DNA of 63,884 nucleotides, counting the filler, from Reclinomonas americana ATCC 50394 (lineage: Eukaryota): the NCBI GenBank assembly GCA_048213135.1. It is 12 parts of 12 records of this genome, joined end to end, with 100 filler letters (N's around TTAATTAATTAA, not from the genome) between each part and the next. Parts side by side here need not be neighbours in the genome. Positions count along the whole stretch, not along the records: positions 1 to 12,379 come from AFZH01019879.1; positions 12,480 to 15,261 come from AFZH01019881.1; positions 15,362 to 18,027 come from AFZH01019882.1; positions 18,128 to 20,367 come from AFZH01019884.1; positions 20,468 to 23,751 come from AFZH01019885.1; positions 23,852 to 26,152 come from AFZH01019886.1; positions 26,253 to 30,326 come from AFZH01019887.1; positions 30,427 to 38,531 come from AFZH01019888.1; 4 more parts are not named here. One strand, given 5' to 3'. The notes beneath the pieces are model-generated. The model saw only the letters and a list, made by a program, of their open reading frames with translations, did no database searches and was not told the origin of the DNA. The position numbers were made by a program, and so were the translations under genes. Below are positions 751 through 62,723 of this stretch, in pieces (position 1 is the stretch's first letter; the number at the start of each line of letters is the position of its first letter).

Positions 751-2953
751 ATGTTTCGTCGCCTTGGCGGGCAGGTCAGTCGCCTCCTCCCTGTGTACAT
801 CTGCACACTGCACACTGCACACACGCAGCTGCATTTCCGCTGCGCGCGCGCCTGTGTGTGCAGTTGCTGTTTGTGCGCCATTTCGCGACTGACTTCTGTG
901 TGTGTCTTTGTGCGTGTGTGTGTGCAGCTGCTGCGCCGGCCACTGTCGGCCATTGCAGCGTCGCCGTCGTCCACGCCACTGCGTGCGTCGGTGACCGAGC
1001 TGACCACGCTGCCGAGTGGTGCGTTGTGTGTGTGTGTGATGGCGCGCACATGCGCGCATGGTTCTCTCGCTCTCTCTTCCTCCCTCCCTGCCCTCCCATC
1101 TTCTCTCGTCTCATACACGCACGCGTGCATGCTCTCCCCTTTCCCCTCGTCATCCTCTCTGCACAACATGCATGTTTTTCACTCTCTCAACGTGCATGCA
1201 TGATGATGATGATTATGTTTCAGGCTTGCGTGTGGCATCGGAGACGCTGCCTGGAGAGACTGCCACTGTGGGCATCTACATCAATGCGGGTTCTCGCTTT
1301 GAGTCGGCAGCCAACAATGGCACCGCGCACTTCCTCGAGCACCTCACCTTCAAGGTCTGTGCACGATCGCCACTCGTGTGAGGTGATTTGAGTCTCACGG
1401 GTGACTCGTTGTTAGGGAACGCCGTCGCTGTCGCAGCGTGACCTGGAGCTGAGCTTTGAGGACATGGGTGGTCACCTCAATGCCTACACGAGCCGTGAGC
1501 AGACCGTGTACTTTGCCAAGGTCCGCGCGCGGCTTGCGGCTAGATGCGGCATCTTTTTTGGTCTCACGCCCCCTGTTCGCAGGTCTTCAAGCGCGACGTG
1601 GGCCGCGCAGTGCAGATCCTTGGTGATATCCTGCAGAACTCGAAGCTCGAGGAGGTCTGTCGGGAGTGTTTGCTGGCGCTGCAACGCGATGCAACAGAAT
1701 GCTGACGTACAGAGTGATGATGATGCGACAGACTGCAATCGAGAATGAGCGTGGAACTATCCTGCGCGAGCAGCAGGAGGTGGAGAGCATTATGGAGGAG
1801 GTGTTGTTTGATCAGTTGCACGCCACGGCGTATCAGACTTCCAGCTTGGGTCGCACCATTTTGGGCCCGGCTGAGAACATCAAGTCGATCCGCCGCGAAG
1901 ACCTGACCAACTACGTGCAGACTCACTACACTGCTCCTCGGTGAATACCTCCGTCGGCACTCTCCTCCTCTCCTCTACTCTCTCCACACCCAAGTGGCGA
2001 AGCGTGCTGACCACCCTCTCTTTAAATGCAGTATCGTGCTGGCCGGTGCCGGTGCGGTGAATCACGCGGAGCTGGTGGATTTGGCCAACAAGCATCTGAG
2101 CAAGTTCAAGTCGGCTGCTGACTCGACGCCGCTGGAGAAGCTGCGCGAGCCCGCTGTCTACGTGGGCTCTGATGTTGCGTCCTCGTCGTCATGGTGGTGG
2201 TGGTGGTGAGAGTGCAGCTGTCGATTGACCCGAAAAACAAACAAAAACAGGTGCGCATCGAGGCCGACATTCCGTTGGTGCACGTGGCTGTTGCAGTCGA
2301 GGGACCCGGCTGGACGTCACCCGACCTGATGACCTTTATTGTGATGCAAACCATGCTGGGCTCGTGGAACCGCACGTCGATTGGTGGCAAGCACCTGTCG
2401 TCGCGCATGTGCCAGTCGATTGCGCAGCAAAATCTGGCGCACTCCGTGACCACCTTCAATTCGCCGTACGCGGACACTGGCCTCTTTGGTGTGTACGCCA
2501 CGGCCGAGGAGGGTCGCTTGGATGACCTGTTGTACGAGATTCAGAGCGAGTGGGTCCGTCTGTGCCACGAGGTGCCGGCGGTGGAGCTGGCTCGCGCCAA
2601 GACGGCGCTGAAGACTGCCCTGTTGGTGGATCTCGACGGCACCTCTGCGGTGTGCGAGGAGATTGGCCGACAAATGCTGACCTTTGGTCGTCGCATCCCG
2701 ATTACGGAAATTTTTGCCAGCATTGACGCCGTGACGGAGCAGAGCATCATCGAGTTGCGTCGGCGTGGCGGAGTTCGTGTCTTTTTTCATATTTCATTTG
2801 GTGGGGGAGCTAAAGTGTGCCTGTTTGCTGGAACACAGTGCTGGTCAGCGCTACATTTTCGACAAGGATCCAGTCCTGGCCGCGATTGGTCACATCAAGT
2901 CGCTGCCCGACTACAACAAGATCCGCCGCTGGACCTACTGGCTGCGAAGCTAA
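751..2953 (+). CDS. MPPB: Mitochondrial processing peptidase beta subunit (M16 family), multi-exon
   Basis: Arg-rich presequence [15 protein letters not shown]. Motifs include [26 protein letters not shown], the inverted zinc motif [47 protein letters not shown] and [17 protein letters not shown]-terminus [16 protein letters not shown]. Confidence 0.95.
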
Positions 2954-3182
2954 GCGCGTCGCAGCGAAGAGAGGCCGAGTGGAACGTGTGTGGATGCGCG
3001 GAGTCTCTCTTCATCGTGATGATGTCTTGCGAGAGTGTACACAGACCAGAAATTGGCGTGAAACGCTGGCTGGGTTGAGAACCCTGCCTCGAGAAAGTAG
3101 GGCAACGTCGTGAGACAACACTTGGTGTCCCGGACCTCAGTCATCAAGCTTCGTTGCTGTCGGTGTACGCAGACGATAAAGA

Positions 3183-4121
3183 ATGGCCAGCCGAGGAGAG
3201 GAGGAAACAAAGAAGCTGGTGGAGCAGACGCAGGTTCGCAGCACAGAGAGTGCGATGTCGCACACGAGGAGATCATCATCATGTGTTGATGCTTTTGCGT
3301 GTGTGTGTGCTTGCTCTGACCCCACAGGAGCAACTGAACCGCCTGCTTCTCCAACTGCAAGACTGTGAAGAGCTGAAGGGTGATTTGGAGCCTGAGGTAT
3401 GTGTGTGCGTGTGTCTATATGCGCATTCCTCCGCATTCATCGTGACACACACGCACAGGAGTACGAGGAAACACGCCGCGAGACACTGGAGCAGGTACGT
3501 GTGGAGCCGAGTCGACCTCTCACTCGCTTGCTCACTCGTCACCGCAGTTGCGTGAGTTTCAAAGAACTCTCGACACGCTGGTGCGCGGAAACCTCTCGCT
3601 CGTCGACCAGTTCAGCAGCGTGCAGCTGGTGCGTGCGTGTGTGTGTCGCTCTCCCTCCCACAACGTCTTCGCCCTTTCATGAGCTGGCTCATGCTGTGAC
3701 AGGCCATTCGAGCTGCCGTGTCGGAGGCATTCAAGACACCGGAAGTCATTGCGCTGTTTGCTCGTCGCCAGCCCGGTCAGCTGCGTTCGCGATTGGCGGC
3801 CATTCAGCAGGAGTTCCAGCTGCAGAAGCTGCCGGAGGAGGCGTATTTGATGCAGAGCGTGGAGATCTTGGTAGCACTCAAGCAACTGGGCGAGGAGGTC
3901 TGGCTGCTGCTTTCTCTTCTCACTTTGTGGTCTTTGTTTGCGCGCGCGTGTGTTGACGTGCGCGATCGGTGTAGCTGACGGAGAGCGAGAAGGCCTTCTT
4001 GGCTGCGAATGCCTCCGGGTCGATGCGCAACTTCGAGACCGTGGATGCGGACTCCGAGGTCGGCGCGCAGAGGACAGTGTTGGCCCAAGCCGGCAGCGCT
4101 ATTCGGCATGCGTCCAAGTGA
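3183..4121 (+). CDS. LZIC: LZIC (leucine zipper and ICAT/CTNNBIP1-domain protein), multi-exon
   Basis: The spliced translation MASRGEEETKKL...EQLNRLLLQLQDCEE...EYEETRRETLEQL.EF...GNLSLVDQFSSVQL|AIRAAVSEAFKTPEVIALFARRQPGQLRSRLA...VEILVALKQLGEE|LTESEKAFL follows the LZIC consensus throughout. Confidence 0.93.
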
Positions 4122-4232
4122 ACGGGGGGTGCGAACTCGGGTGAGCCACCGAGCAGCAATGGATTATACACCCTCAATGGAATCGACGTGTGTTGTGTGC
4201 ATTGAACGACAACTGTCTTTCTTTTTCCCTCC

Positions 4233-7200
4233 TCAGCCCACACCCCACAAGAACATGTCGCCGTGGCGATCGCCGGCAGCCAGCTCCGTGAGATCCGGAC
4301 TGTGTACGCGTATCGCATGTTTTAGTTCTTGATGTGAGGTGACGGCGACAAGGCAGTGCAGACGCAACGAGAATGCCAGTGCAGTTACTGGTGCGGTGGT
4401 GAGACGCGGCATGTCCACCAACGGCCGCAGGTCCCACGACGAGTACAACAGCACCTCGCCTCGCTCGGTTCCCACGGCCACCACATTGCGATGCACACCC
4501 TCGGTGCCGTGACTGAATATGAGCGCGGTGACACTATGTACGCCGTGTGTCAGCATCGGCGAGCGACAGCGGCACTCGAGAAAGAAAGAGGACATACCGA
4601 CTCATCACGCTCTGTTGACCCACACGTTCGCCATTGATGCTCCACAGCTCCACGTTCGACGCCTCATCTTCGCTGCTGATGCTAGCCGTCACAATGTCGC
4701 CCTGCATTTTTCTCGCCGACGTGAGCCAACCACAACTCACTTTTCTCTGCATGCCCCTGACACACATCGCTGACAAACCGAGGTCTCCGAGAGCGCCACA
4801 CAAACGACAGTGTCACCGGTCACACGAAGCGTGCGAATGTACTGCAACCGAGTGAGGTCCCACACGATGACGGTGCCGTCGACCGAGCCGCTGACGATGA
4901 GATGGTACTCCTCGCTGACCACCACGCTCGTCACCGGGCCGTCGTGGCCAGTGAGCACGTCCAAGGCCACAAAGCAGCCAGTCAGACTGCTGTTCGATGG
5001 CGAAGATGCTTGCATGGCTGCGGTCGTGCGCAGCCGCCACACACGCACTGCACATGCGTGGTGAGTGGAAGGAGCATCCACGCGCAACGAAACAGGGAAT
5101 AAGTGGACGCACCCGACCCACGGGAACTGCCGGTGGCCATCCACCGACCACTGGACGATACGTGGCAGCAGCGCACTTCTTCGGAGCGCGGCAGCGAGAC
5201 ACGGCACACGACGCGCGACTTGTCGGTCGAGCAGAGGCGAATGGCGTTGTCCCAGTAGTGGTAGCTGCGGCAGAACCGTCGTCAGCATAGAGATCAACAA
5301 GCAACTCGACGCAAGACGAGAACAACGCACGCAAGGTAGTACTTGTAGAGCGGCGGCACTGGAATGGTGAATTGTGGAAGTGCAGTTGGCGACGAATTGT
5401 ACACAATGCTGCCGATGGGCACATCCAGCTCGTTCGGCAGCGTGGACTGGCGGAAGAGACGAGCAGTGCCGGTGACTGGAAACACACACCCGGGAATGAG
5501 TGGTCTTCATACCGGGGAAGACGAAAACATGCGTGCACATACCGACACTCTCATCGAGAGGGAGTGCCACATGACGCGACGGCAGCGACTGGCGACCGGG
5601 GACGACGGCAAAGTGTGCCAGCTCCAGCAGCGTCGTCAGTGCTGCGCGCTTGAGGTCGGCGCGTGCAGGGTGCGGATTACCAAAGAGCTGACGCGGTGTC
5701 TGACCAAACAGATCGATTTGGGTAATGATGCTCTGTGTTCACCGCGCGCGGTGAGTGACCGGATCAAGATGGACGAAACGAACATACACGAGTGCACAGG
5801 TGACGGCAGTGAATACGCAACAGCTTTGCGCACAGGATCGTCAATCTTGTCAACGTCGACGCCACCCTCGTACGTGTAGGGATGGAACACATTCATGGCC
5901 TCCACGGCCTTGGGCCCCTGCATTCGGTGTGAGCAAGAGGGGCACACATAGAGTGATGTGGAACATCTGGCGGTGACGCAACTTGCTGCTTGCTGCCAAA
6001 GATCAAGTCGATCCAGTGATGCAGGTTGCGCGACACCGGTGCCGACTCGAGTGCCTCGCGATGCAAACGGACGTATGTGCGCGCGCTGTTCCACCCACAG
6101 TCAGCCAGCCAGCACACGACTCGAGAGAGCATTAAAAGCTCACGCAACTTGTCTTGCGCCCACACCGGCAGTTCCACGTTGCTGACAGGCGCGCCCGTGC
6201 TCTCGGTGCCGAGATTTACCCCGTTGGCGTTGACAAACATCTCTGGCAGGCAATAAAACTCGGGAATGAGTTCCTTGACTTGCCTGCCGACAGCCGCCGA
6301 GGTGAGCCACGACGCGGCCACCGAGCGGAATGTGCGGTCGTCGAAGCGCTTGTTGAACCAGAGATAGAATGACGTGTACGGTTCCACGCGCACTGTGCAC
6401 ACAGTGAGTTGAAGGAGGAGAGGTGGAAGTGCGCATCGCAGACAAACAAGCACGCACCAAGATAGCCGAGTACAATGCCACGCGTGGAGTAATGACTGCC
6501 GTAGTGGAAGGGATGCAACAAATCGAGTTCCTTGCTCTCCTCAAAGCACTCCTTCGCGCGAGCACACACACAATTGCAGTGAGTGTGGCGGCGCCCGCGC
6601 TGGCAATAGAGCACGGAAAACAAGACACGGACCTGAAAGACGGCGACGCGAGATGGATGTTGTGTACCCATGGGTTTGCAGAGGTTGCGCAGGTTGCTGA
6701 GCTGCGAGGTGTCGAGCTCCGGCGAACCGTGGTCGGCCACAATGTGTGGAAACACGGGATACTGGCACAGATCGTTGAACGAGCGACCGGCGAGAGTGTT
6801 GAGCACCATGAGGTACTCGAAGTTGCTCACGGAGCCCTCCTGCTCACGGTCGTCGTCAGCTTCTCTCCACAAGAGAGAGAGAGAGACAGAGGTTGGGAGA
6901 AGAGAGACACGCGCACGCACCTTCCACCGCTGATGGATACTCTTGGTCCAGAACGTGCCTTGCGCCTCGGCTTCGTAATCCACCAGATCGGGACAGTCCA
7001 TGGCCTTGACCAACGCCGACACCGATTTCCTGTTCGCACGTACGCAGCGTCAGCGGGAAGCACAAACACGCTCAGACACACATGCGCGTGTTGGGCTCAC
7101 CTTGCTCGTTCCTCGGCAAATGCGAAAAAGTACGCCTTTCCACCCATGAGGTAGATCTCAAGACCGGTGTTGCGCAACAAATGTCTGCGCCACAACGTGA

Positions 7201-10200: not shown

Positions 10201-13200
10201 TTGTCCGAGTTCGAGCGCTTCAGCTTGCTGCGTTTCTTCCTCCGCTTCGACGACTTGCGCTCTTGCGAGATTGAGCTGCGACCGCCGTCGTCCTCTGCTC
10301 GCGCACACCCCACAAATGAGTGCGCAGGCGGACACAAGAATATCTCTCCACCACTTACACACCGTCAGTGGAAATGTGTTCCACCGCATGTACGGCAGCC
10401 AGCGGTCCCGAACCCGACGTGTCGCCCAGGTTCTCGAAGAGCAACAAGAACTCGGCAGGCGACAGCGGCACACGCCGCAGGTGCCAGGCAAGTTGCGCAA
10501 ACCCATTCATCGCAGTGAACTTGGCCGAGAGCGGTGGCACCGACAGGAATCGATCGAGGATCTGCAAGTACACGTAGCGCATGCACGAATTCGGGTTCTC
10601 GAGGAAGCGCAGCAGTTTGGAGAACGGCAATATCTCGCCCTCGAGCATCTGCAGTGACTCACGCCACTCGGGCGACGAGATTTTCGCTGCACCACCGCCA
10701 GCACATTGAGATAAGCAGAAAGCACACAAATCATCTCTCGGCATGGAGAAAACCACACGCACCGCGCAGCAACGTGGCCGTGGCCAGACCAACAGTGAGA
10801 CATTGCGACACGGCGCCGCGCCAGTCGACACCCGATCGCAGTGCGTTGAATACCGCTGTGCGCAACGTTTTAAGATGCGTCGCGCACAAGTAATATGCAA
10901 CAAATAGATGATACCTTGATGCGCAAATCGCGACGACTCGGTCTCAGACGATAGGCTGTGGAGGCAACTGCGTCAGATCCGTGAAATGGCACGAAGACAA
11001 AAAATCGCGAAACAACATGCACGCAACAGCGAGTGGAGGGTGGTGAGAAATTGCACCAGCGGACGAGCGTCGTCGACGTGCTCCACCAGCGGCTCAATCA
11101 CCATGCCAGCCTGCGGAACAAGTGACTGCGGCAACGCATGTCCCAGTGGAGTCGCGAATTCTCTGGACCGAGCACGATGCGCAGACGGATGTGGTGTCGC
11201 AGGTGCACCATCGGCAGCAGCCGTCGACGGCGTAGCGCCAGTGCCACCATTGACGTGCGGTACAGGCTGTGCAGTCAAAAATGTGAACCTCCCGACGACG
11301 GGTGCGAATAGTGTGCACACCACAACAACACACCTCGGCTTGCGACGGTCCACCGCGTTCGAATCGCGCTCGCTCAATCTCGCCAAAGGCCAACATCAGC
11401 AGATTCAAAAAGTCACCCTCCCGGCACACGCGTCGAATGTCGGCGGCGTGTGCATGCTGCAGCCGGCGATAGCAGCACAAGTCAACATCACGAACGACAT
11501 TCTTTCGCAAAAGCACACATACAGGCACACGAAACATCAGTCAGCAAGTAGCGCAGGCACGCCAGCCACTGCGCCACCACATCGCTCGACGCCGAGCTCC
11601 ACAGTCTGTAATCAAGAAGCAGTATCCGCAGGCCGTCTGCGTCGCACAGCCGCCCATCCACCAACCAGCACGCCGATTGTGCCGTGCGCCCGTGTCCTGC
11701 ACAATTGTCATCAGCAACAACAACAACAACGAAAACACACAACAAAAGGATACGCACCGCTCTGCTGCAGCGAGTATGCGTCGGGCTCCGCGCGTTGGAA
11801 TTCAGCCTCCAGCGAGCGCGAGGTGGCTCCCAAGTACGATCGGTCCAGCGACAGCAGCTGGTCCTCCTCGAAACCAACAAAGCGGAACGCAACACGCAAC
11901 GCGGCAGCCGACAGGCAAAAGCTCGACCGTCGCAAGTGCAAATTGAGCCAGTCGAAGCCGTTCATGGTGCGGAACTCGACGTCACACATGGGCGAGAATC
12001 GCACCAATGTGTACAGCAGATCGAGACAGTGCAGCTGCAAGTCGGGCTCGTCAACGCGCGCCAACAGCGCGAGAATCACTGGCGTGCCTCCCACGTGAGT
12101 CCACGTGCTCGCAATGCACGAGCGCTCCCCAGACACAATCTGCAACGTCGAAATCACAGGTTGGTCAATTGAGCTCCTCAAACAAAAAAAAAACGTACCA
12201 AAGCCAACAACTTCGTCACTCACCTTGCCGCCGTGCATGGCAGGGACAGCGAAGAAATGCACATTCTGGAACGAGGCATTGGTGGAGACAGGCGACACCG
12301 GTGACGTCGCCGCTGAAGACGACGACAGAGCTGACATGGAGCCGGAGGAGGAGCCGGTCGAGTTGGACTTGTTGGTCAANNNNNNNNNNNNNNNNNNNNN
12401 NNNNNNNNNNNNNNNNNNNNNNNTTAATTAATTAANNNNNNNNNNNNNNNNNNNNNNNNNNNNNNNNNNNNNNNNNNNNCCACCACCACCGCCACCACCA
12501 CCACCACCACCACCTCCGCCGATACCACCGCCGGTGGTGGAGGTCAGCACCAGCGGAGTGTACGGTAATAGCTCGCGATAACAGGATGGAGCGTTGAACT
12601 CAGCCGCGTGTGCCGACAGCACGAGCGTACTGATCAAATCCGCAGGTAGTCTTGGTGCATGCAGCAACCGCAAATACTCCTTCAAGTCACGCGTCTGCAC
12701 ATCCAGTGCCATGCACGAAACCAGTAATGACAAGACCAATGACCGCACGCACGCAAGAGGCGTGTGAGGCGAGCCAGCCGGCATCACATTCCGCCGTAAT
12801 GGAGACGACAGGGGACTCCTCGCATACGAGCCGGGAGACATGGGCGAATCCAGGTGCGCGAGCAGCATGGGAGACAACAGATCAGCATTGACAGACATGG
12901 AGGTGGAAACAGGAGACAGCGTGGTGGACTGGTCGGAGCGCGGCGTCGCCAGCTGTGGTGGTGCAGTCACGTGACCGTGACATGGCACGTAGTGGTCGAA
13001 AAAATGTACAAAATTGGATTCCAGTTCCTCGCTCCTGCACGTTCGTGAGCAACACAATCACAGACAGAAGGCGAGCCTCAAAAAAAAAAGACGAACCACG
13101 AAGCGCTGAGCATCATCGATGCTTCGTCGTCCACTGGAGGCCACAGGTGCCCGCATGTCAGCTCGGGGCTGGCGTCGGCCAGTACCATCGACATTCGATG

Positions 13201-17419: not shown

Positions 17420-17864
17420 TCATGAGGGGTTGTCGTTGGCCACCTCGCCCCGCATCACTCGCACCAGGTTGATGACGGACTGCACCGTGCACGTGACACA
17501 GAGAATGCTGCCTACGATGATGATGAGCCAGTCCACGGTCCAGGCCCACCACGACAGTCCGAATTGGTATTTGCCGTCGTTGACGGTGCGCTTGGTGTTG
17601 TTGGGTGAACGCATGATCTTCCAGTGGAAAAGTGCAGGGAACACAATGGCCAGCAGGACGCTGCCGAGACTGCCGACAACCCTGCATGTGTACCGTCACT
17701 TGCGCGTGTGAGCACGCGATTGCAGGAAGTCAACGCCTTGCAACGCAACGAGATGAATTCGCCAAAGTGTGGTATTCCGGTGGCAATAATGCCCGAGATG
17801 ACCACGAGGAACAGCCGCCACAGCCATTGTTTCCACGAGATGCTGATTGTACGAGTGAGGCGAC
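17420..17864 (-). CDS. Amino-acid transporter (Aa_trans/AAAP family), 3' part; the rest lies in the gap
   Basis: RLFLVVISGIIATGIPHFGEFIS|VVGSLGSVLLAIVFPALFHWKI plus a terminal TM helix, typical of the last AAAP helices. Confidence 0.8.
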
Positions 17865-44306: not shown

Positions 44307-44387
<81 letters not shown>

Positions 44388-45857
44388 ATCGCTGCTCTCA
44401 CCTCGAGGTAGCGGAACAGAAACTCGACAAACAGGTACACGATGATAAAGGGCGCCATCAGCAGGTTGACAAAGCCGAGCACCACGAATTCGGTCTTCAG
44501 CGCGCTGACAATGCCTTCACGATCCCGGCGGGCCAGCGCCTGCCGATCGAGCAGCGAGCGCACAATCTTCATGAGATTGTATTCCAGCGATCGCGTGAGG
44601 ATGCTGGTGTTGGAGAAGAACGGCAGCGGGATGTGTAAATCGAGCAAGTTCTTGTTGACCAGGCCAATCAAGTAATTCTGCTGGCGCATGATCCGGCTGG
44701 CGATATCTGTCAACGCGGGGGGAGAAGACAGTCAGCACATGTCACAGCGCGACTCCACCACGCGCCGACTCACCCAGCGCCGTCTGCTTGCGCTGCAATG
44801 TGAGCTGCATTCGCTCCTGCAGCAACTCCAGATTGTGCGCCACCACATGCCACTCGACGCTCTGCACATCCGACTACTCACACGCAACAGTGGTCAACAA
44901 GACGAACGCGTGAGAAGATACACACAGGCGCACGCAAGCGCAACATCAGTCATCTTCAAGTGTGTGCTGTAGAACGCTCGTGATCGACGCGCCGCCGCAA
45001 TGGTTCCGATCGACAGCCACAACTTCCAGCCCCAAAACACCACAAATCCCAGTTCGAGTACGGCCACATACCACTGTGCCGCCTCCATGCTGTTCCCACG
45101 CACACATGATGAGCGTGTGCGTGTGGACAACAACTCGGAGTCTAATCTGACGATTCTTCAAAGATCCTCCTCTGCTTTCGTGTGCGCGTGTGCTTTGCTG
45201 CGATCTCTCTCTCTGCGTGCGCGCGCGCGTGTGTGTGTGTAACGACTACAGTGCGTGTGAGCGGCAAACCTCCTGAACGGATGCTCGTGGATTTTACGCG
45301 CGTGTCGGAAACACTCGAGCGTGTCACACCGATTCAGCGCATCCCAGTCGACAAAGATGACCAGGAACGTGGTGAATGTGATCAAGAAGGCAATCGCTCT
45401 GTGTGTGAGTGCGTGAGAGAGAGCGCGCGCGTAAGTGAGTGAAACCGCACATCATTACAGTGTGAGTTGACGCAACAGCGACGACAGCACTTCGCTGAGC
45501 ACGATACACCAGTAGCCCTTTCTCACATAGTACTGATACAACTAGGAAGAAGAAGAAGACGACGATTCAAAGTGAGCATATGTAATCGGCGAAGAGAGAA
45601 GCAGACGTTACCTCCACAAAGAAATCATCGACATCGCCGGCGACCAATGGCGCCAATCGCTCATGTTCTGCCACCAGTGGAGCTGCTGCGGCAGCAGAAG
45701 AAGACGACGACGACGAGCGCACAGCTGCCAACTCCACATCGGCACCACTGGAGAAGAGCGAGGCGCCGGGCTCGACACCAAACAAACGCCGTGACGACGA
45801 GGACGACGACGCTGGCATAGAGCTGTCCTCGTGTTGAGGAAGGCGCACGTACGCCAT
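41666..45857 (-). CDS. ATG9: Autophagy protein ATG9 (lipid scramblase), multi-exon, spanning a gap
   Basis: VDDFFVE...YYVRKGYWCIVLSEV, FTTFLVIFVDW, DIASRIMRQQNYLIGLVNKNLLDL, LTRSLEYNL, LGFVNLLMAPFI, ISYTHYVP..W, VDFVRDNSVEVEGLGYVCSFSTFNFHRHGNP, GKMEKSFINFLANHPQW. Confidence 0.95.
44307..44386. repeat. (CT)n microsatellite, intronic, at a gap edge; another (CT)n at ~63838-63884
   Basis: Directly visible. Confidence 0.95.
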
Positions 45858-50200: not shown

Positions 50201-51230
50201 GGGGCTGACTGTGGCGCAGATGCTGGAGGTGCGAGTGGACGAGTCATTTCCGGACGGCAGACCGTTCCTCGACTGGCTCCAACTACGACTCGACTCGTAC
50301 AGTGCGAGGCGTGAAGAGAAAGGCGAGATGGCGAGCTCAATGACGTTGCCGGATGTGATCTTCTTGGATATGCACCTGCAGCGAGTGCATGGAAAGGAGA
50401 CGATGGAGGCGATCAGCAACATGTGTCGAGCATATAGAGTTCACCGGCGACCGCTGACGGTGCTGATGAGTGGTGACGCCGTGTGTGTCGTTCCGCGCTC
50501 ACCTGGTTTGTCCCCATTCCTGTGCGCCAGTCGCCAGTTGTCCACCGTTACTAAAGCTACACACAAACAGAGAGTGACGACGACGGGCCTGCTTTCGTGC
50601 TGCAGAAACCGACTCCGAGGGTGAGTCGTTGGTGTGTGGTGGTTTATCGTTGGCGAGTGCGGGCATTTGCTGAGTTGGGTGTTGCAGACGGCTGTGCATC
50701 AGCTGTTGACTGCGGTCGCGGTGCGGCGAGGCATTCTTCCGCAGTCTCATCCTTTCGAAATTGACTCGCCGCCGCTGATGACCGGTGGCACCCTGTCGCG
50801 TCGCTTGCCGAGCTCTGTGCGATCTTCGCCAACTCCAGTGCGTTCATCGCCCCTGCATCACTCACGGACAGCCACACTTCAGCAGCAGCGACCGCCGCCA
50901 GACCCCACGTCCAAGCCCTCGATGCCGTGGCTCAAGACGTCTCCGTCTTCGATCTCGACACCTGTCCTGGGCGATGTGGCCGCGCTGCTATCGCCCACTG
51001 CGGTGCACTCGAAATCGCCCCAGTCTCAGAACACAACTCCAGCAAAGCAGAAACGGGTGCAGGACGCTGCTCGCATTGCCACTGAACTGGACCTGCCGTC
51101 ATTGTCGCCACACTCGCTGATGAGCACAATCCTTCTCTACGATGGTGATGGTTGGTCGTCTCACAGCAGCAACGGCGACAGCAGCGCCCCTCCGGTTTTC
51201 TCAAGTGCGCGAGCCTCGCCGATTAGTTAA
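47293..51230 (+). CDS. Membrane hybrid histidine kinase, copy 1 (divergent sensor, HisKA, HATPase_c, receiver)
   Basis: About six hydrophobic segments, then KDLFLSK|CSHELRQP (H-box), LSNLLSNAIK|FT (N-box), VADTGQGV (G1), EPFYQ (F), GTGLGLTLV (G2). Receiver VIVDDS...PDVIFLDMHL...LMSG...VLQKP. The start could instead be 47224. Confidence 0.92.
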
Positions 51231-51497: not shown

Positions 51498-54400
51498 ATG
51501 CTGTCCACTGCCAAAGACCGTGACACCTCAGCGGCAGCGGCGCAGTCCTTGCAAGTGGCGGCCACATCGATGTTGCCATCGGAGGACTCTGTTCCTCTGA
51601 GAGCTGATGCGGATGTCGACGACGATGCAGAGATAACGGCGGAGGACGAGGACGAAGAAGAAGAGGAGGAGCACGGGGAAGGAGAGGAGCCATTGTTGCT
51701 GCCGGCGACAACAAGTCAGTACTTGGAAGGCGTTTGTGTCACAGTCGCCGCCTGTGTGTGCGCCTGCTGCACTGCGTTGCACTGGTGGTTCACGGAGCAC
51801 AGTCTCATAAGTTACATGCATTCTTCGCGCTGCTGCCTCATGTCTGTGATGCGCTGACAGTGTTGCATTGTGATGACAGTGCTGTTCTTATTGTTGAGTA
51901 CGCTGGCGGCGTTCACTGTGTGGTTTGTCAAGTTGGCGGGTACGTGGTGGCTTTCACCGCACGCGTGGCGGAAGATGATTTCGATTGCAGGAGGCCTTCG
52001 TGCCGGAATCGAGGTCAGTGGTGTGCGCGCATGGCGAGTTGTCTTCGACCTCACTTCTCATCTGCCTGCAACACTCACAGATAATCCGTGCTCGCCGATG
52101 GACATACATGCTGCTTGGTGTCACTGCAAACATCATTGTGACTGCCTTCGTGCCGGCGATAAGGTGTGTGTTGGTTATCACTGTTGTTGTACTTGGTGCA
52201 CCAGTGAAAAGTTGACTTGTGGGTGCAGCTTGACACTGCTTACCTCGATTATTATGTCGGGCATTGTCACCACCTGGCTGTACCCCTCGCCGTCACTGGT
52301 TTGTGGTCCCTTCTGCTATCCTTACTTCGATGTTATCGTCGCTGACAGCCTTTTGCGTGGTCAGTCGGCATTGAACCTTTTGCTCAATTCTGTAGTCAAC
52401 TGCTACAAGGCGTACTCATTCGGCCTTTCACTGGTCTGTCTGTGTCCACGTTGTGTGTCTCACGCGCGTCAGTCGCGTGCTGATTGGGTGTGCATGCAGG
52501 ATATGTGTTTCTTCGCCACCATCCAGCCACTGCTGCTGGGTCTGCGAGCATATGTTGCGTGTGCTGCGAGAGCACTGCCGTCACTCTTCTCCTCCATGTT
52601 CACTGTGCTGCAGAACTCGTTTGGCGACGTACACACGGCGATTGAGGACTTGCGAGTTGTCAACACTCGCATTCACGACACCAACACGAAACTCGAGTGT
52701 GCCAACACGTTGCTCACGGAGAAGGCCGAGGCACTCACCGAGGCCATTGAAGACAAGGATCTGTTTCTGAGCAAGGTGAGACTGAGCGCCGCGAATTTGC
52801 AGCAGCACATGTGATGCGACAACTCACCCTGTGTTTGCAGTGCTCGCACGAGTTGCGACAGCCATGCTTCGGCATCATGTCGGCACTGGAGAGCTACATG
52901 TCTCTGTCGAAGCACAGCGATCCTGCAATTGCCGAGGCCATCTCGTCGTCACCTGGCATCGAAAAGATTGCACGATACAACGACTCTTGTGTTGCGTGAA
53001 GCGTCTCGTCTTAGGCATCATCCGAGTGTTCTCACTCCTTTGTCAAACCCATGCAGGTGCACGACGGGCTGCAGGCAACGCGGACATTGCTGGCCTTGTT
53101 GAATGGTCTGTGTCTGTGTGTATGATGTTTTCATCGTGCTTCTTGCCACTCACGTTGTGATCGGCGGCAGAGCTGTTGGATCTGATGAAGCAGAAGCGAA
53201 TGACCATCAATGTGAAGCTGGCTCCCGAGTCACTGGTGGAGGTGTTGGCGTCGGGAGTGCGTTGTATGAGGCACATGGCACAGAGGCAAGTCAACTGAAT
53301 GCAGCAGCCTGAGTGATTGCAGCTCACGATGAATGTGACCGTGTGTGCACAGTGCTGCTCTCGGCCTGTCACTGCGAGTTGGTCCGATTCTCATGTACCA
53401 CTACCCGCGTGGTGTGCGGACGTGGATGGATCGACTCCGGATCATTCAATGCCTCAGCAACTTGCTCAGCAATGCCATCAAGGTTTGATGGCAGAAATAT
53501 GGTTGCAGCAGTTCTGATTCTCACTTGTGAGTTGTTAGTTCACCGAAACTGGCTCTGTGGCGGTGACTGTCGTTCTGGCCACTCGCACCAAGGCCGACCC
53601 AGAAGAGCTGGCACGCCGCGGCATCTGGGGAGGTTTCGTTTGTACTCACTTTGATACGAGATTGACACCGGACTGACGTGGTGTCGCTGCGCAGAACCCG
53701 AGTACATGTACTCGCCCATGTACGACATGCAGCAGTTCCTCGTGGCTCCGACACGCTTCGCGTCCGAGGTGCAGGAGCACCCCTCCGAGTACTACGTGCG
53801 CGTGTGTGTGGCCGACACAGGTCAGGGAGTGTCGTTGGATGATGCAGCACACTTGCTGGAGCCATTCTACCAGAGTTCCACCAGTCGAACGCGACATCAG
53901 TTTGCCGGCACGGGTCTTGGTCTGACACTGGTGCGCGACATGTGCCGTACGCTGTGGGATGGCGATCTGTGGTGTGTATTGCGATGAAGGCGACTTGTCT
54001 TTGAGTGCGTCGACATGCTTATCGATGCTCATGGTTGCAGGTTTGAGTCGAAAGTCGGCGTCGGATCACGGTTCTACTTCTCCTTCCCCTACAAGCCTTC
54101 ATCGTCATCGTTTCGTTACTTTATGTTACTTGTGATCATATCCTGTTTGGTTTCTGACGTTGGACATAATGCAGCGACAGCAGCTCCGAGATGCACCATG
54201 ACGCCAGTTTGCAGCAGGCTGAGACGGCGATGCCAACCGAGAATGTGACCCAAGCCAAGCCCGTTCGGGTCCACTCGCCTTTGTCGCAACAGGCCAGTGC
54301 CCTGCCATCGCCGATGAACCAACGTCCCCAGCTGTCGTGTGTGATTGTCGATGACAGTCGCGTGGTGGTCAAGGCGCTCGAGCGGCTGTGTGTGTCGCAT

Positions 54401-55419
54401 CCAGTTGAGTGTGCCGTCTGGTGGTTGCCTGGTGTGACACAGAAGCTAACTGCGACACAGATGCTGGAGGTGCGAGTGGACGAGTCATTCCCGGACGGAC
54501 GCCCGTTCCTCGACTGGCTCCAGCAACGCCTCGACACTTACGGCGCAAAGCGTGAGGAGAAGGGTGAATCAGCGTGTTCTACGATGCTGCCGGACGTGGT
54601 GTTCTTGGATATGCACTTGCAGCGAGTGCACGGGGCGGAGACGATGGAGGCGATCAGCAACATGTGTCGAGCATACAGAGTTCATCGACGACCGCTCACA
54701 GTGTTGATGAGTGGTGACGCCGTGTGTGTTCTCCCACAGTCGCAAGGTGTGGTTTGTGACGTATTTCCTGTTGCTTGTTAACATTCTCGGTGTTGACAGC
54801 CTTCCCACAGAGAGTGAAGACGACGGACCTGCATTTGTGCTGCAAAAGCCGACTCCGAGGGTGAGTCGTCGTTGTGCGGTGGTTGTCTCCGAGTTTGCTG
54901 ACTTGGGTGTTGCAGACGGCCGTGCATCGCTTGCTGACTGCAGTCGCTGTGCGGCGAGGCATTCTTCCACGTACGTACCACTGCACCGAGATTGACTCAC
55001 CGCCGTCGTTGGCCGTGGACAGCAACACCACGGTGGTTCCACCGTGTCCGCCGCCCGCGGCGCCAGTGCGATCGCCGCCAAAGGCCTTCCGTTGGGTTCC
55101 ATCAAACAACACACCTCCGACGACGACACCTCTGCTGCAGCAGCAACAACGTCCTCGACAACGACCAAGATTACTGCGTTCTTCGTCGTCGTTCACATCG
55201 TCGGTGGCCGCAGGCGAAGCCAGCACTTCCGAGTCCGCCGCGGAACACCACGCAGCCACTCGTGCGCATGCTGCCAGAGTTGCCGCCGAGCTGGATCTGC
55301 CGTCGGCGTCTCACCATTCACTGATTACCACTGTTCTTGCGTATGGCGTCTGCGAGTCGTCGTCACACAGCAGTGGCAGTGCAAGTAGCAAGCGGGGGGG
55401 AGAGATAAGCGTGACTTAG
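51498..55419 (+). CDS. Membrane hybrid histidine kinase, copy 2
   Basis: Same exon structure and the same H/N/G1/F/G2/receiver motifs as copy 1; acidic N-terminus; one GC-AG intron (donor at 53286). Confidence 0.92.
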
Positions 55420-55629: not shown

Positions 55630-58600
55630 ATGCTGTCCGCTCGTGCGGATGATGGCCGCGACAACACTGGTGGAGTATCGACGATGTCGGCTGCCGGAGT
55701 GGGCAAATTGAATTTGCCGTCATCGCGTTCGAGGGCTGAAGTGACTGGCGACAATGCAGAGATGACAGAGGAGGAGAAGGAGGAGGAGGAGGAGGACGAC
55801 GACCCGCCGATGGCGCCAGTGACGACCAGTCAGTATTTGGAGAGCGTGTGTGTCACAGTCGCCGCCTGTGCGTGCATCTTCGGCGGCGTGCTGCACTGGT
55901 GGCAGACCGAAGGCTCTGTGACAAGTTGCGTGCACGCACGCACGCACGCACGCGCTTTCTCTCTCTCTCTCTCTGTCTCTGTCTCTTATTCTCTCACCAC
56001 GAACCACGGAATCTAGTGTTGGTGTTGTTGCTGGGACTGCTGGCGGCCGCCACTGTGTCGTTTGTCAAGTTGGCAGGAGCCTCGTGGCTTTCGCCATACG
56101 CATGGCAACGGATGATGACGATTGCGGGTGGTCTTCGTGCCGGAATCGAGGTCTGCACGATGACGAATCACTCACTGACGGTCCTCACACTCACGCAGTG
56201 TGCGTGCAGAGGATCCGCGCGCGACGATGGTCATATGTGTTCCTGGGAGTGGTGGCAAACGCGATCATCGTTCTCTTCGTGCATCGATTGAGGTGTGGCG
56301 ATCACGGCTGTGTCGAGCAGAAAGTGGTTCTCTTTGTGTCAACTCATACCTGCGTCGTGCCCAGCTTCGTTCTTCTCGGCTCGATCCTGTTGTCGGCCAT
56401 CGTCACCACCTGGTTGTATCCCTCGCCGTCACTGGTTTGTGGTCCCTTCTGCTATTTTCATTGTCAGCATCGTTGACAACCCTGCGTGGTCAGTCGGCGT
56501 GGAGTCTGTTGCTCAACTCTGCAGTCAACTGCTACAAGGCGTACTCATTCGGCCTTTCACTGGTCTGTCTGCGTCCGTGCTCTGCTTCCGTGCGCGTTGC
56601 GTGCTTATTGAATGGGCATACAGGATATGTGTTTCTTCGCCACCATCCAGCCACTGCTGCTGGGTTTGCGAGCATATGTTGCGTGTGCTGCGAGAGCACT
56701 GCCGTCACTCTTCTCCTCCATGTTCACTGTGCTGCAGAACTCGTTTGGCGACGTGCACACGGCGATTGAGGACTTGCGAGTTGTCAACACTCGCATTCAC
56801 GACACCAACACGAAACTCGAGTGTGCCAACACGTTGCTCACGGAGAAGGCTGAGGCACTCACCGAGGCCATTGAAGACAAGGATCTGTTTCTGAGCAAGG
56901 TGAAACCAACTAACTGAAAGCGTACGTGGTGCATCAACTCACCCTGTGTTTGCAGTGCTCGCACGAGTTGCGACAGCCATGCTTCGGTATCATGTCGGCA
57001 CTGGAGAGCTACATGTCTCTGTCGAAGCACAACGATCCTGCAATTGCCGAGGCCATCTCGTCGTCACCCAGCATCGAAAAGATTGCACGATACAACGACT
57101 CTTGTGTTGCGTGAAGTGTCTTGTCGTCTTCGGCATCATCCGAGTGTTCTCACTCCTTTGTCAAACCCATGCAGGTGCACGACGGACTGCAGGCAACGCG
57201 GACACTGCTGGCTTTGTTGAATGGTCTGTGTCTGTGTGTTCATCGCGCATCTTGCCACTCACGTCGTTGATCGTCGGCAGAGCTGTTGGATTTGATGAAG
57301 CAAAAGCGAATGACCATCAATGTGAAACTGGCTCCCGAGCCACTGGTGGAGGTGTTGTTATCAGGCGTGCAGTGTATGAGGCACATGGCGCAGAGGCAAG
57401 TCAACTGAATGCAGCAGCTTGAGTGATTGCAGCTCACGATGAAAATGACCGTGTGTGCACAGTGCTGGTCTCGGCTTGTCACTGCGAGTTGGTCCGATTA
57501 TCATGTACCATCATCGACGTGGTGTGCGGACGTGGATGGACCGACTCCGAGTCGTTCAGTGCCTCAGCAACCTGCTCAGCAATGCGATCAAGGTTTGCTG
57601 TCCAAATGTGAATATGGTTGCAGCGATTCTGAGACTCACGTGTGAGTTGTAGTTCACCGAAACTGGCTCTGTGGCGGTGACTGTCGTTCTGGCCACTCGC
57701 GCAAAGGCTGATCCAGACGAGTTGACACGGCGTGGCATCTGGGGAGGTAGCGTTTGAGTCCACCTCGTTCTCGAGATTGACGCCAGACTGAAGTGGTGCC
57801 GCTCCGCAGAACCGGAGTACATGTACTCGCCCTTGTATGACATGCAGCAGTTCCTCACGGCACCAACACACTTCGCATCCGAGGTGCAAGAGCACCCCTC
57901 CGAGTACTACGTGCGCGTGTGTGTGGCCGACACAGGCCAGGGAGTGTCGTTGGAGGATGCAACGCACTTGCTGGAGCCATTCTACCAGAGTTCCACCAGT
58001 CGGACGAGACATCAGTTTGCCGGCACGGGCCTCGGTCTGACGCTGGTGCGCGACATGTGCCGTACGCTGTGGGATGGCGATCTGTGGTGCGTATTGCGGT
58101 GGAGGCGACTTGTGTTCGAGTGCGTCGGGATGTTCACCAACGATGGTTGCAGGTTCGAGACTCAAGCTGGCATCGGATCGCGGTTCTACTTTTCCTTCCC
58201 GTTCAGACCGACGTCGTCGCCGTTGCGTTTCTTCTTAGATGTAGTACTTACTGTCTCGTTTATTTTCTTGACAATCGAGAGCAGCGGTGCCGACGTGGCA
58301 GCCACCCCCGAAACACCACAAAATCCCGACACGCAACAGGCCGCCACCGTTGAGACGGCAAAGTCGACGGAGAATGTGACGCCAGCCGAGCCCGTTCAGG
58401 CCCTCCCTCCGTCGCAACAGGCGACCAGCACGCCGCCACCGCCAGTGCGCCAACGACCACAGCTGTCGTGTGTGATTGTCGATGACAGTCGAGTGGTGGT
58501 CAAGGCGCTGGAGCGGCTCTGTGTGTCGCATCCAGTTGAGTGCACCGTGTAGTACGTCTGGTGGTTGCCTGGTGTGACACAGAAGCTGACTGCGACACAG

Positions 58601-59603: not shown

Positions 59604-59860
59604 AGCCGGCGCCGGTGTCGTCGGTGTGACTGCAAATGTATGGCGGTGGCTGTGTTCTTGAATGTTGCGCTCCTCTTCTTTTGTGTGGGTGTGCGCGCCC
59701 GCGAGGTGCAAGTGCGCAAGAAAACGATTCGCCACGACGACGAAGCCAGCTGCAGCGACGAATTTGGAAAATTCAATTGCTCACTGTGTGTTGTTTTACG
59801 CACGGCACGAGTGAGCGCGTAAGGGACTGTGTGCTGGCATTCACAGTGTGTGTGTCAACA

Positions 59861-61389
59861 ATGTCGGCAGCGAGCGGTGACGACGGTGGCGCAGCACCAA
59901 CACAACCTCTGCCCTCCCCTCCCTCTCCACCAGCTCGCTCCTCCTCCGCCTCCTCTCTCTCCTCCAGAGAGGAGCGCAGAGCGCGAGGCGCGGTAGAGGA
60001 GGAGAGGATAGTGGTGGAGGAGAAGATGGAGAAGGAGGAGGAAACGACTGTGAACACCAGTCAGTACATGGAGGGCATCTGTCTCACCATTGTCTCGTTC
60101 TTCTGCGCGCTCGGCAGTCCACTGCACTGGTGGCTTGTGGAGGGCAACCTCGCCAGTTCCGTACGCGAGCACAGCGCCAGTGTGCGTATTCCTCACTTCC
60201 TCTCTCTCACACATGCGCACACACGCGCACGCACGCACACAGTGTTCCTGTTCCTCATGGGCGCTCTGGTGGTCATCACTGTGTGCTTTGTCAAGCTCGC
60301 GGGTGCCTCGTGGATGTCACCACGCGGGTGGTATCAGATGATATCAATTGCCGTCGGTCTGCGCGCCGGACTTGAGGTCTGTGCGCTCGTGAGATCTCTG
60401 CTCGCTCACTCACTCATTTGTGTACCGCACACCACAGACAATTCGCGCACGCAGATGGATGTATGTGGCGATGGGATTGGTGGTGAACGGCACAGTCATT
60501 GTATTGGTGCCAAGATTGAGGTGGCGTCTTTTTTTCATTGATTCCTTCCTCTTCTGCTCGACTGTGACGTGGAGACTCACCGTGAGTCTGATTGGCGCAG
60601 CTTGGTGCTGCTCTCATCGGTACTGCTGTCTGGTATCATCACCACGTGGCTGTATCCGACGCCAACGCTGGTGTGCACCATTTGTATTCTGCTCAACAAG
60701 ATGTCGATTGTGGCTGATCGTGCGTGTTCTCTGTACGCAGACGGCGTGGAACATGCTGCTCAATGCAGCGGTGAACTGTTACAAGGCGTACTCTTTTGGC
60801 CTGCCGCTGGTCTGTCTGCGTCGCAGGCTCCGAGCGTGCAGCCGGTCGCGCAGCTCACCAATCCTTTTTGCAGGACATGTGTTTTTTTGCCACCGTGCTG
60901 CCACTGTTGCTGGGTCTGAGGGCATTCGTTGCGTGTGCAGCGGGAAGGAGCGTCAGCTGTCGAACAACTTTCCGCCCGGGCTCACCACTTGCGCGCGCAG
61001 AACTACTTTGGCGATGTGTATGCCATGATCCAGGACTTGCGCGAGTTTATTCATCGCATCAACGACACCAATACGAAACTCGAGTGCGCCAACACGTTGC
61101 TCACCGAGAAGGCCGAGGCGCTCACCGAGGCCATCGAGGACAAGGATCTGTTCCTCAGCAAGGTGAGACCCGGCGCAGTGAATCAGCAGTGGGTGGATGA
61201 TGTGAGCTCACACGTGCTGGCTGTTGCAGTGCTCTCACGAGCTGCGACAACCCTGTTTCGGTATCCTGTCGGCACTCGAGGCGTACACGCCCCAGACGAC
61301 GTCGACGCCGCACAAGTTGTCCCTCACAGTGCAAAATGAGTCTTGCGTTGCGTGCATGGGCTTGGGGAGAGAGGGGGGGAGGGGCTTCA
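59861..61389 (+). CDS. Membrane histidine kinase, copy 4; truncated by the gap after the H-box exon
   Basis: Homologous TM exons (SQYMEGICLT, VKLAGASWMSP, VNCYKAYSFG), coiled coil and SHELRQPCFGILSALE. Confidence 0.85.
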
Positions 61390-61552
61390 NNNNNNNNNNN
61401 NNNNNNNNNNNNNNNNNNNNNNNNNNNNNNNNNTTAATTAATTAANNNNNNNNNNNNNNNNNNNNNNNNNNNNNNNNNNNNNNNNNNNNGAGACTTGATG
61501 AGTGTGTGTGTGTTCTCGGACGCGAAGCAGCACTGAGTATGTGTTGCCTCAG

Positions 61553-61692
61553 TTGCCAAGGTGCTGGCCGAGCGCTCGGCCAAGATCGGGGCGACGGTGT
61601 CGGTGCGCGAGTTCATTCGGATGGAGCGCGGCGAAGGTCTGGAGAAGAAGACGCAAAACTTTGCCGAGGAGGTGGCGCAGGCTGCCAAGTGA
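61553..61692 (+). CDS. tsf: Translation elongation factor Ts (organellar), last exon
   Basis: AKVLAERSAKIGATVSVREFIRMERGEGLEKKTQNFAEEVAQAAK* matches the EF-Ts C-terminus (F.R.E.GEG.EKK..(D/N)FA.EV). Confidence 0.85.
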
Positions 61693-61776
61693 GCCTGCAA
61701 TGGTGGTAGCACGTCATTCTAGATGGTGAAGGAAGGACACGGGTAATGGAAGGAGGGTACTTTGCGATTCGATGGT

Positions 61777-62723
61777 TCATTTGAGGATGACATTTTGGAA
61801 GAGGTGAATTGTGGCGGTGACAATGTCGTAGCCACAGGCGAACAGGAAGTATCCCATCACTACTGTCCACAGCAGATATGTAAAGTGGCTCATGGCGTAG
61901 GGAATGGGCACTTGGTACTTGGGCTGGCGCGAACGGTATACCATCAGTGCGACAAACACACCTGGGTGGTGGGAGTGAGGAAGACAGTCCCTTGATTGGG
62001 ATATCAACAGATTACGTACCGGCCTCCAGATTCAGTGCCAGTGAGGTGAAGACTTCGAGTACCACGAGGAAACCCTGGTCACGGTGCGTGCGTGTGTTGA
62101 GTCACAGAAACGATAAATTGAGTCGGCGCATGACGCAACTCGCGGATTGAGTGCGGCGATGAGCAGCACCACGCCAAAGCCCGCCACGTACAGTGATACT
62201 TGCAGGCGGGCCTTGGTGGCTGCGAGGAGACCACGAATGGCGGCCCACGTGCCACGCAGGCACGAGCGCAGACAGACACAGCGTCGATCTGCTCGGATAC
62301 ACACCGATGATACGAGATCAGCGACGATTGCATTCCACAAGCAGGCGATCGCGACGCACTCTCCAAATAATCCGACGGCGACGATGACGACCCGCCCATG
62401 TTGCCCTTGGGCAGGAACTTCTTTACGTATCCATCCACTGCGCGCGATGCACGGGATTAGAGAACATGCGAGAATGAGCGAGCACGGAAACAGTGGGTAC
62501 GAACGCATGTGCTTCATGCCGGAGCCGAGAGCCAAGTACGAGATGCTGACGGAGATCACGATAAACACATTGACCAAGGTGGAGACCCAGAGGAACTGCG
62601 GCTGCTGCTGCCGGATGATCTCCGTCACAGGGACGGTGGAGATCTGACCCTTCTCCTTGGCACTGCAACCGGCATCACCATGAGACCGATACAGCACACT
62701 GGGTCGGAATCGACATGTGCCAT
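61777..62723 (-). CDS. Amino-acid permease (Trp/Tyr permease-like APC transporter), 3' part
   Basis: GQISTVPVTEII...LVNVFIVISVSISYLALGSGMKH...GFGVVLLIAALNPR|GFLVVLEVFTSLALNLEAG|VFVALMV plus a terminal TM helix. Confidence 0.7.

Follow-up and report, generated by a model that had tools for sequence, protein, structure and literature searches.

Gene models and donor classes in the window

We analysed 5' splice sites (donors) in a window of 63,884 nucleotides (nt) from Reclinomonas americana ATCC 50394 (assembly GCA_048213135.1), made of 12 contigs joined end to end with a GC content of about 58%, and in particular a class of predicted introns that begin with GTT and carry the familiar downstream part of the donor motif one base late. 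Pfam matches among 150 open frames identified genes for MPP-beta, ATG9, RsfS, an amino-acid transporter (Aa_trans) and a single-exon pseudouridine synthase, IFT/WDR35-like and ICAT-like genes, a large BEACH-WD40 gene, HECT, LRR and CBM20 genes, and four tandem hybrid histidine kinase (HK) paralogues.

Introns were predicted with a self-written gene finder based on dynamic programming. The donor-blind version required only GT or GC at donors and was self-trained on codon usage, intron length, branch point and acceptor; codon bias alone under-predicted, and self-training on the 3' signals was used instead. This version produced 22 gene models with 201 introns, of which 155 spanned 60-79 nt; the branch point was CTSAC and the acceptor CAG. 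A learned model, in which two-class donor signals were trained from the donor-blind output, gave 23 gene models with 188 introns. Donors of these 188 introns were classed as ordinary if they had G at +5 (108) and as shifted if they began with GTT and had G at +6 (56); 19 belonged to neither class and 5 started with GC. Collapsing paralogous kinase introns left a non-redundant set of 51 shifted and 101 ordinary donors. A strict subset, restricted to introns that were identical in both models and whose retention breaks the open reading frame (ORF), held 121 introns (73 ordinary, 35 shifted and 13 other).

On these predictions, GTT donors are a mainstream class that accounts for about 30% of introns in the window. 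The donor-blind output already contained 63 GTT-initiated donors among its 201 introns, 29 of them GTTGCGT, and its commonest donor hexamer was GTTGCG (33/201, versus 19 for GTGCGT). In the learned model the same two hexamers were found 40 and 25 times, respectively. The 56 shifted heptamers comprised GTTGCGT (35), GTTTCGT (7), GTTGAGT (5), GTTGCG[ACG] (5), GTTGGGT (2) and two others, and in the strict subset GTTGCGT was again the commonest heptamer (22), ahead of GGTGCGT (13). The initial annotation had counted at least about 20 GTT introns; the class turned out to be larger (56/188 in the learned model, 63/201 in the donor-blind model and 35/121 in the strict subset). All 17 coordinates it cited carry the motif (14 GTTGCGT, with GTTGCGA at 30022, GTTGCGC at 44944 and GTTGAGT at 50162). 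As donors, 15 of the 17 were recovered in gene models and 17749 is a probable sixteenth, since a 68-nt phase-2 intron there joins open frames of 92 and 86 codons, the downstream ORF having an Aa_trans match. Site 15923 is uncertain: only GAG or AAG acceptors fit and no gene model lies there. The ordinary donors named in the same annotation, GTGCGT, GTGAGT, GTCTGT and GTACGT with G at +5, were all found among the learned-model donors.

The motif was also enriched and highly specific. GTTGCGT occurred 49 times on both strands, compared with 17.15 +/- 4.11 in dinucleotide-preserving shuffles, none of 100 shuffles reaching 49. Thirty-five of the 49 sites (71%) were donors, a larger proportion than for any other motif; the remainder lay on the sense strand of gene models (10), antisense (1) or between models (3). 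Enrichment of GT at +6/+7, expected if the shifted register is genuine, was borne out in the donor-blind model (39/63 GTT donors versus 12/136 other donors, p=8.5e-15), against a background of 92/1501 other GTT sites (6.1%) and a GT frequency of 8.2% in intron interiors. Retention of the intron broke the ORF in 45 of the 56 shifted cases, and of the 21 models that contain introns, 17 had shifted introns interspersed with ordinary ones. We consider it very probable that the shifted GTT class is real.

Register and reader of the shifted donors

The two donor classes were separated by the exon base at -1. G occupied this position in 92/108 ordinary versus 7/56 shifted donors in the learned model, in 76/98 versus 6/45 in the donor-blind model (Fisher p=2.5e-13), and in 65/73 versus 6/35 in the strict subset. 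Ordinary motifs preceded by G were used as donors at 19/33 GTGCGT, 10/28 GTGAGT, 9/15 GTCTGT, 7/14 GTACGY and 5/7 GTATGT sites, while without the -1 G the corresponding numbers were 6/85, 0/57, 0/38, 0/85 and 0/15. The strictness of this dependence in ordinary donors looks unusual. Because ordinary motifs that lack the -1 G are almost never donors, the functional donor unit predicted from these counts is a heptamer, G-[G/T]-T-N-N-G-T, and the two classes as written differ at its position 2 only. This accounts for the restriction of position 2 to G or T: position 3 has to remain T, and a GT is needed whose first base is position 1 or 2. A switch from one class to the other would require a compensating frameshift, and introns are therefore expected to keep their class. 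When the classes were aligned on the heptamer their flanks agreed: before the heptamer stood A (37%) or G (17%) in ordinary donors and A (37%) or G (14%) in shifted donors, and the base after it was G in 39% of both. The -1 composition of shifted donors resembled the ordinary -2 column, and among the 51 non-redundant donors the exon flank was explained better, by 57.7 nats, by the ordinary-class columns moved by one position than by the columns in the same register.

We propose that one U1-type reader serves both donor classes in a shifted register, a reading to which we assign a probability of roughly 0.55. The heptamer G-[G/T]-U-N-N-G-U would be the functional donor, read most likely by the 5' end of a U1-type small nuclear RNA (snRNA). 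With G at position 2, the cut would fall after position 1 and yield the ordinary G|GUNNGU. With U at position 2, the sole GU would lie at position 1 and the cut would be made one base earlier, |GUUNNGU (mostly GUUGCGU). Both forms would be bound in the same register, with intron G+1 standing in for the exon -1 G, and the GU requirement would then fix the exact cleavage site. This requirement is set by U6, U5 and Prp8. That the GTT donors are read in the shifted register at all, whether by such a single reader or by an altered or second U1, is probable.

Several observations weigh against a single reader of standard type. The junctions rest on frame, homology and a self-written gene finder, and the four paralogous kinase genes supply part of the counts, 51 of the 56 shifted donors being left after collapsing. 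The shifted class was also the more constrained of the two, and more than the ordinary heptamer with U in place of G: position 5 was C in 48/56 shifted versus 45/108 ordinary donors (p=5e-8). At positions 4-5 (NN) ordinary donors had GC, GA, GT, CT, AT, AC or TT; shifted donors used GC at 35/49 sites, TC at 7/16, GA at 5/10 and GG at 2/5. For GT, CT, AT and AC there were 25 donors with a -1 G but none at 21 GTTNNGT sites. This restriction at position 5 and across NN would not be expected if one standard U1 were simply reused. Nor do pairing energies suit it. ACUUACC is the near-universal U1 5' end, for which GTAAGT is the optimum, but the 8 GTAAGT sites in the window included no donor and never lay on the exon sense strand. 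Duplex energies were calculated in ViennaRNA from the textbook sequence of the U1 5' end (taken from PMC4856993), which may not be the organism's own U1. The median was -1.8 kcal/mol for shifted versus -6.2 kcal/mol for ordinary donors, and GUUGCGU, though the most frequent and most specific donor, reached only -1.4 kcal/mol. RNAduplex placed C4 of the textbook U1 opposite +6 in just 31/56 shifted donors, with energies near zero. The donor repertoire as a whole is of GC type (GTGCGT, GTTGCGT), with A at +4 in the minority.

These features are what would be expected of a dedicated reader, that is a second U1-type snRNA, or a U1 5' end departing from ACUUACC, complementary to GUUGCGU. The stringency of the class (35/56 exactly GTTGCGT, position 5 enriched for C), the top share of GTTGCGT sites that are donors, the failure of GTAAGT and the negligible energy with textbook U1 all point in this direction. 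Two invented U1 5' ends, one with GC at positions 5-6 and one with an additional A at position 8, gave -8.3 and -12.6 kcal/mol with GUUGCGU, although these values are arithmetic on made-up sequences and no evidence for such a U1. Against a dedicated reader, the heptamer-aligned flanks are indistinguishable and a single reader is the simplest account; the 5 GTTGAGT donors would pair poorly with a GC-specific reader; and GTGCGT donors are also used by other GC-rich organisms, whose U1 is of the standard kind. The reader itself is pure conjecture, and an Rfam search of the window returned no family at gathering score; at E<=1 it gave three miRNA/sRNA matches at chance level and none to an snRNA. 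The donor sequences make an altered or second U1 plausible, but a reader dedicated to the shifted class is in our judgement unlikely.

Whichever U1 is used, the U6 step would differ. Of the 51 non-redundant shifted donors, 88% carry C at +5; the canonical pair between +5 G and U6 cannot form in these, and we infer that U6 must accommodate one extra nucleotide at shifted donors. Taken together with a changed U1, this would amount to a rewiring of 5' splice-site recognition in the lineage: an altered U1 5' end or a second U1 would read a GC-type heptamer, and about a third of introns would be cut one base upstream, with U6 accommodating the extra nucleotide. We put this forward tentatively, as a possibility with the odds against it.

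A bulged register would instead have U1 pair with -1, +1 and +2, let one U (+2 or +3) bulge, and resume pairing from +4 to +7. GT-T-GCGT can be written as GTGCGT with an extra T, and bulging is documented at human 5' splice sites (PMC4856993). If a U were bulged, however, the -1 pair would persist, yet the preference for -1 G is lost in the shifted class and its -1 column has the composition of the ordinary -2 column, with the difference of 57.7 nats given above. The loss of the exon -1 G, whose role intron G+1 would take over, favours a +1-shifted register with the cut before the first GT over a bulged U, which we regard as quite improbable. The interpretation in the initial annotation is thus partly supported: about 30% of introns are predicted to use the shifted register, and their flanks match the shifted alignment; the bulged pairing mentioned there as an alternative is disfavoured by the -1 G statistics; and the variant or tolerant snRNAs proposed there may exist, made plausible by the pairing energies and the NN restriction.

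Junction support and 3' signals

Another reading is that the shifted introns are mis-called, the motif being a coding or regulatory word with the true donors nearby. Some features of the predictions leave room for this: the gene finder was self-written and codon bias is weak, 12/56 shifted introns appear only in the learned-donor model, and 11/56 are in-frame and stop-free, so that the frame does not force them. However, the spliced MPP-beta model aligned with seven homologues without a gap at the GTTGCGT junctions 2174 and 2754, and the spliced BEACH-WD40 region was contiguous with seven homologues across 6148, 5982, 5821 and 4368, giving six gapless shifted junctions. At HECT donor 30646, the ORFs on either side match adjoining stretches of the Pfam HECT profile, which meet at about position 220-227. 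Homologue searches gave no match for the HECT exon and one for the ATG9 exon, whose query was swamped by low complexity, and a search of the PDB with two short ATG9 exons gave nothing useful, which confines residue-level support to the MPP-beta and BEACH-WD40 junctions. The class was moreover recovered by the donor-blind model, GTTGCGT within gene models lay on the sense strand in 45 of 46 cases, and the shifted introns have the same branch point, branch-point distance and CAG acceptor as ordinary introns. The four kinase paralogues kept their donors while intron interiors diverged. From copy 1 to copy 4, the donor of the first HK intron is GTTGCGT, GTTACAT, GTTGCGT and GTTCCGT; in the receiver domain, copies 1-3 share an intron that begins as CCA|GTTGAGT. 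Both agree with the initial annotation. Wholesale mis-calling is on this evidence very improbable. Assembly error, with G read as T, was excluded because it would break frames confirmed by homology.

The 3' signals were compared between classes. Both had a CTSAC branch point, with CTCAC, CTGAC and TTGAC as the top three in each, at a median distance of 19 nt in ordinary and 21 nt in shifted introns; CAG acceptors were found in 98/108 versus 54/56, median intron lengths were 68 and 69 nt, and branch-point scores did not differ either (Mann-Whitney p = 0.56-0.68 for the comparisons of 3' signals and length). Shifted introns start with GT, have a branch-point A, end in YAG, and restore the ORF on removal. 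By these signals they are genuine U2-type GT-AG introns that share their 3' machinery with ordinary introns. A diverged minor (U12-like) spliceosome would account for a stringent donor with no -1 G preference, as in U12-type introns, and a family of mobile introns (introners) carrying the donor is a related possibility. However, no RTATCCTT-like donor was found; where U12-type introns have a TCCTTRAC branch site 10-15 nt from the 3' end, the shifted introns have GTTGCGT-type donors and CTSAC, at a median distance of 21 nt, and a U12-like origin is unlikely because the 3' signals are equal and the classes are interspersed. An all-against-all blastn comparison of 188 intron interiors detected similarity only among kinase paralogues and CT microsatellites (31 pairs), and the class is not a mobile family because its introns share no sequence beyond the signals. 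We give either origin almost no credence.

It is just as hard to credit a cut that always follows heptamer position 1 (G), producing UU-start introns that end one base past CAG: the cut would be uniform relative to the heptamer and the frame would be preserved, so that frame alone cannot decide, but the 3' ends of the introns would not be AG and would fall on a base that is not conserved (A 19, G 15, T 14, C 8; n=56), the residue given by GT-AG boundaries fits the homologue column slightly better (S over G at 5821, N over K at 6148), and GT-AG is the overwhelming rule for intron boundaries.

Table 1. Predicted shifted-class introns and contig linkers, in window coordinates. Lower-case letters are the exon bases before the donor; "both models" denotes the donor-blind and the learned model.
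Position	Strand	Donor and context	Support
2174..2250	+	gat|GTTGCGT, phase 0, MPP-beta	both models; gapless VYVGSD|VRI vs 7 homologues
2754..2838	+	cga|GTTGCGT, phase 2, MPP-beta	gene model; gapless homologue junction
6086..6148	-	caa|GTTGCGT, BEACH domain	gene model; contiguous with 7 BEACH homologues
5918..5982	-	caa|GTTGCGT, BEACH domain	gene model; homologue alignment
5733..5821	-	gct|GTTGCGT, BEACH domain	learned model only; gapless homologue alignment
4300..4368	-	ctc|GTTGCGT, WD40 part of BEACH protein	gene model; homologue alignment
753..828	+	cat|GTTTCGT, weak 5' end of MPP-beta model	learned model only
11457..11535	-	gat|GTTTCGT	both models
10956..11027	-	gct|GTTGCGT	both models
14812..14884	-	aca|GTTGCGT	both models
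13929..14003	-	caa|GTTGCGT	both models
17682..17749	-	probable, ctc|GTTGCGT, amino-acid transporter gene	splice joins long open frames; outside gene models
19750..19813	-	act|GTTGCGT	both models
19428..19518	-	gaa|GTTTTGT	learned model only
18815..18884	-	gca|GTTGAGT	both models
22715..22788	-	gag|GTTGCGA	learned model only
22219..22278	-	aac|GTTGCGG	both models
21794..21868	-	atg|GTTGCGT	both models
21580..21661	-	gcc|GTTGCGT	both models
21278..21354	-	aac|GTTGCGT	both models
20857..20936	-	gca|GTTGAGT	both models
25754..25845	-	cct|GTTGCGT	learned model only
24042..24107	-	acg|GTTGCGT	both models
29524..29785	+	agc|GTTGCGT, 262 nt, 3' end uncertain	learned model only
30022..30095	+	aga|GTTGCGA	both models
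35869..35921	-	gaa|GTTTCGC	both models
34907..34974	-	cga|GTTTCGT	both models
34435..34499	-	gac|GTTGCGT	both models
32801..32860	-	gaa|GTTGCGC	both models
32430..32514	-	cga|GTTTCGT	learned model only
31173..31245	-	cga|GTTGCGT, HECT gene	both models
30583..30646	-	gat|GTTGCGT, HECT domain	gene model; Pfam HECT positions abut
38067..38130	+	cac|GTTGCGT	both models
38668..38729	+	cag|GTTGGGT	both models
38980..39048	+	gac|GTTGCGT	both models
39376..39440	+	gat|GTTGCGT	both models
40318..40375	+	gct|GTTGCGT	learned model only
41181..41246	+	tga|GTTGGGT	both models
43028..43103	-	gtg|GTTTCGT	both models
45399..45476	-	gct|GTTGCGT, ATG9 gene	learned model only
44874..44944	-	gat|GTTGCGC, ATG9 gene	both models
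47489..47584	+	cga|GTTGCGT, HK copy 1, first intron	gene model; homologous to 51811 (GTTACAT), 55925, copy 4 (GTTCCGT)
48014..48085	+	ttt|GTTGCGT, HK copy 1	both models
48734..48799	+	tgt|GTTGCGT, HK copy 1	gene model; paralogous to 52991 and 57106
49381..49443	+	gag|GTTTCGT, HK copy 1	both models
49859..49923	+	gtc|GTTGCGT, HK copy 1	both models
50162..50219	+	cca|GTTGAGT, receiver domain, HK copy 1	gene model; paralogue comparison
52554..52613	+	tat|GTTGCGT, HK copy 2	both models
52991..53056	+	tgt|GTTGCGT, HK copy 2	both models
53633..53694	+	gag|GTTTCGT, HK copy 2	both models
54404..54460	+	cca|GTTGAGT, receiver domain, HK copy 2	gene model; paralogue comparison
55925..56016	+	caa|GTTGCGT, HK copy 3, first intron	gene model; paralogue comparison
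56678..56737	+	tat|GTTGCGT, HK copy 3	both models
57106..57174	+	tgt|GTTGCGT, HK copy 3	both models
58535..58600	+	cca|GTTGAGT, receiver domain, HK copy 3	gene model; paralogue comparison
60928..61000	+	ttc|GTTGCGT, HK copy 4	both models
62075..62139	-	cga|GTTGCGT	both models
12380-12479, 15262-15361, 18028-18127, 20368-20467, 23752-23851, 26153-26252, 30327-30426, 38532-38631, 44207-44306, 61390-61489, 62724-62823		linkers, 44 N + TTAATTAATTAA + 44 N	identical in all 11

Known systems and other features of the window

In human genes, shifted-register donors are rare exceptions of the GUUAAGU type; the founding paper on them is said to be that of Roca and Krainer from 2009, and bulged-nucleotide U1 registers were reportedly the subject of Roca et al. 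in 2012. Unlike those rare human sites, the shifted donors described here make up about 30% of predicted introns, with GUUGCGU as the top donor, and they carry C where textbook U1 mismatches, leaving almost no predicted stability with it. In Physarum the U12 class has expanded, and there, as would be the case here, a marginal mode of intron recognition became common in one lineage; unlike in Physarum, GT-AG boundaries and a U2-type branch point are retained and only the donor register differs. The same likeness and the same difference hold for Fritillaria and the tunicates, whose non-GT/AG introns are described in PMC13326754. Shifted and bulged U1 registers are both established for human 5' splice sites (PMC4856993). 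As at the shifted sites in that text, the intron starts with GU, the motif is displaced by one base, G+1 replaces the -1 G and the cut is made at GU. As in its bulged registers, an extra nucleotide stands between GU and the downstream G-U, but the donors in this window have lost the preference for -1 G, and their flanks agree with the shifted alignment. For a tandem donor of STAT3 exon 21, studied in human minigenes, PMC11162779 proposes a non-canonical U6 register; with C at +5 the shifted donors would likewise need such a register, here for what may be a genome-wide class and not for one human exon. A literature search at title and abstract level found no organism with shifted GTT donors as a main class, though the organism's own genome paper may differ.

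If about 30% of introns are indeed shifted, then a whole lineage can change the register in which its donors are recognised. Rewired recognition, if true, would be a natural genome-scale split of the place where U1 binds from the place of the cut, and a class of genome-wide extent would offer hundreds to thousands of natural substrates for the coupling of U1 binding, U6 pairing and cut-site choice. Gene finders trained on donors with +5 G would mis-annotate about a third of introns, which may explain why a protein search returned no protein of this organism. Annotation by ORF would err as well: 28 of the 188 predicted introns are in-frame and stop-free, long ORFs run through them, and extra residues would be added at each. 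One BEACH ORF of 277 amino acids (aa), at 6219-7049 (-), holds two such introns.

Relatives of these genes were sought in public data. In a protein search the best relatives of MPP-beta were 45-56% identical and scattered across plants and protist transcriptomes, and a metagenome scan found 30 loci, with full-length matches at most 52% identical and a best single segment of 63%. A 75-aa protein from a public assembly (P0124) was 85% identical to the BEACH exon at 6552-6632 (-), and its ORF continues into sequence beginning with V (GTN) exactly at the predicted donor 6632. Because the ORF reads on with V at this donor, a fairly close relative sharing the intron position is present in public data.

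The tandem kinase genes, each with HATPase_c and receiver domains, occupy 47293-61388 (+) and have conserved intron positions. Some of their introns are 98-100% identical between copies (48734 and 52991 100%, both 97.9% to 57106) and others are divergent, a pattern that points to recent duplication or gene conversion. At one homologous kinase intron, copies 2 and 3 (53286 and 57396, +) have the GC donor gag|GCAAGT and copy 1 (49029, +) has gag|GTTTGA. A further predicted GC donor, gct|GCTGCGC at 41023, matches the shifted heptamer with GC replacing GT.

The contigs look ordered and oriented, since several gene models on the minus strand extend into the linkers between them, but genes are cut there. 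The commonest 7-mers of the window are (GA)n and (GT)n microsatellites, and the ATG9 model ends at a contig edge in an (ER)n run encoded by such a microsatellite at 44309-44400 (-).

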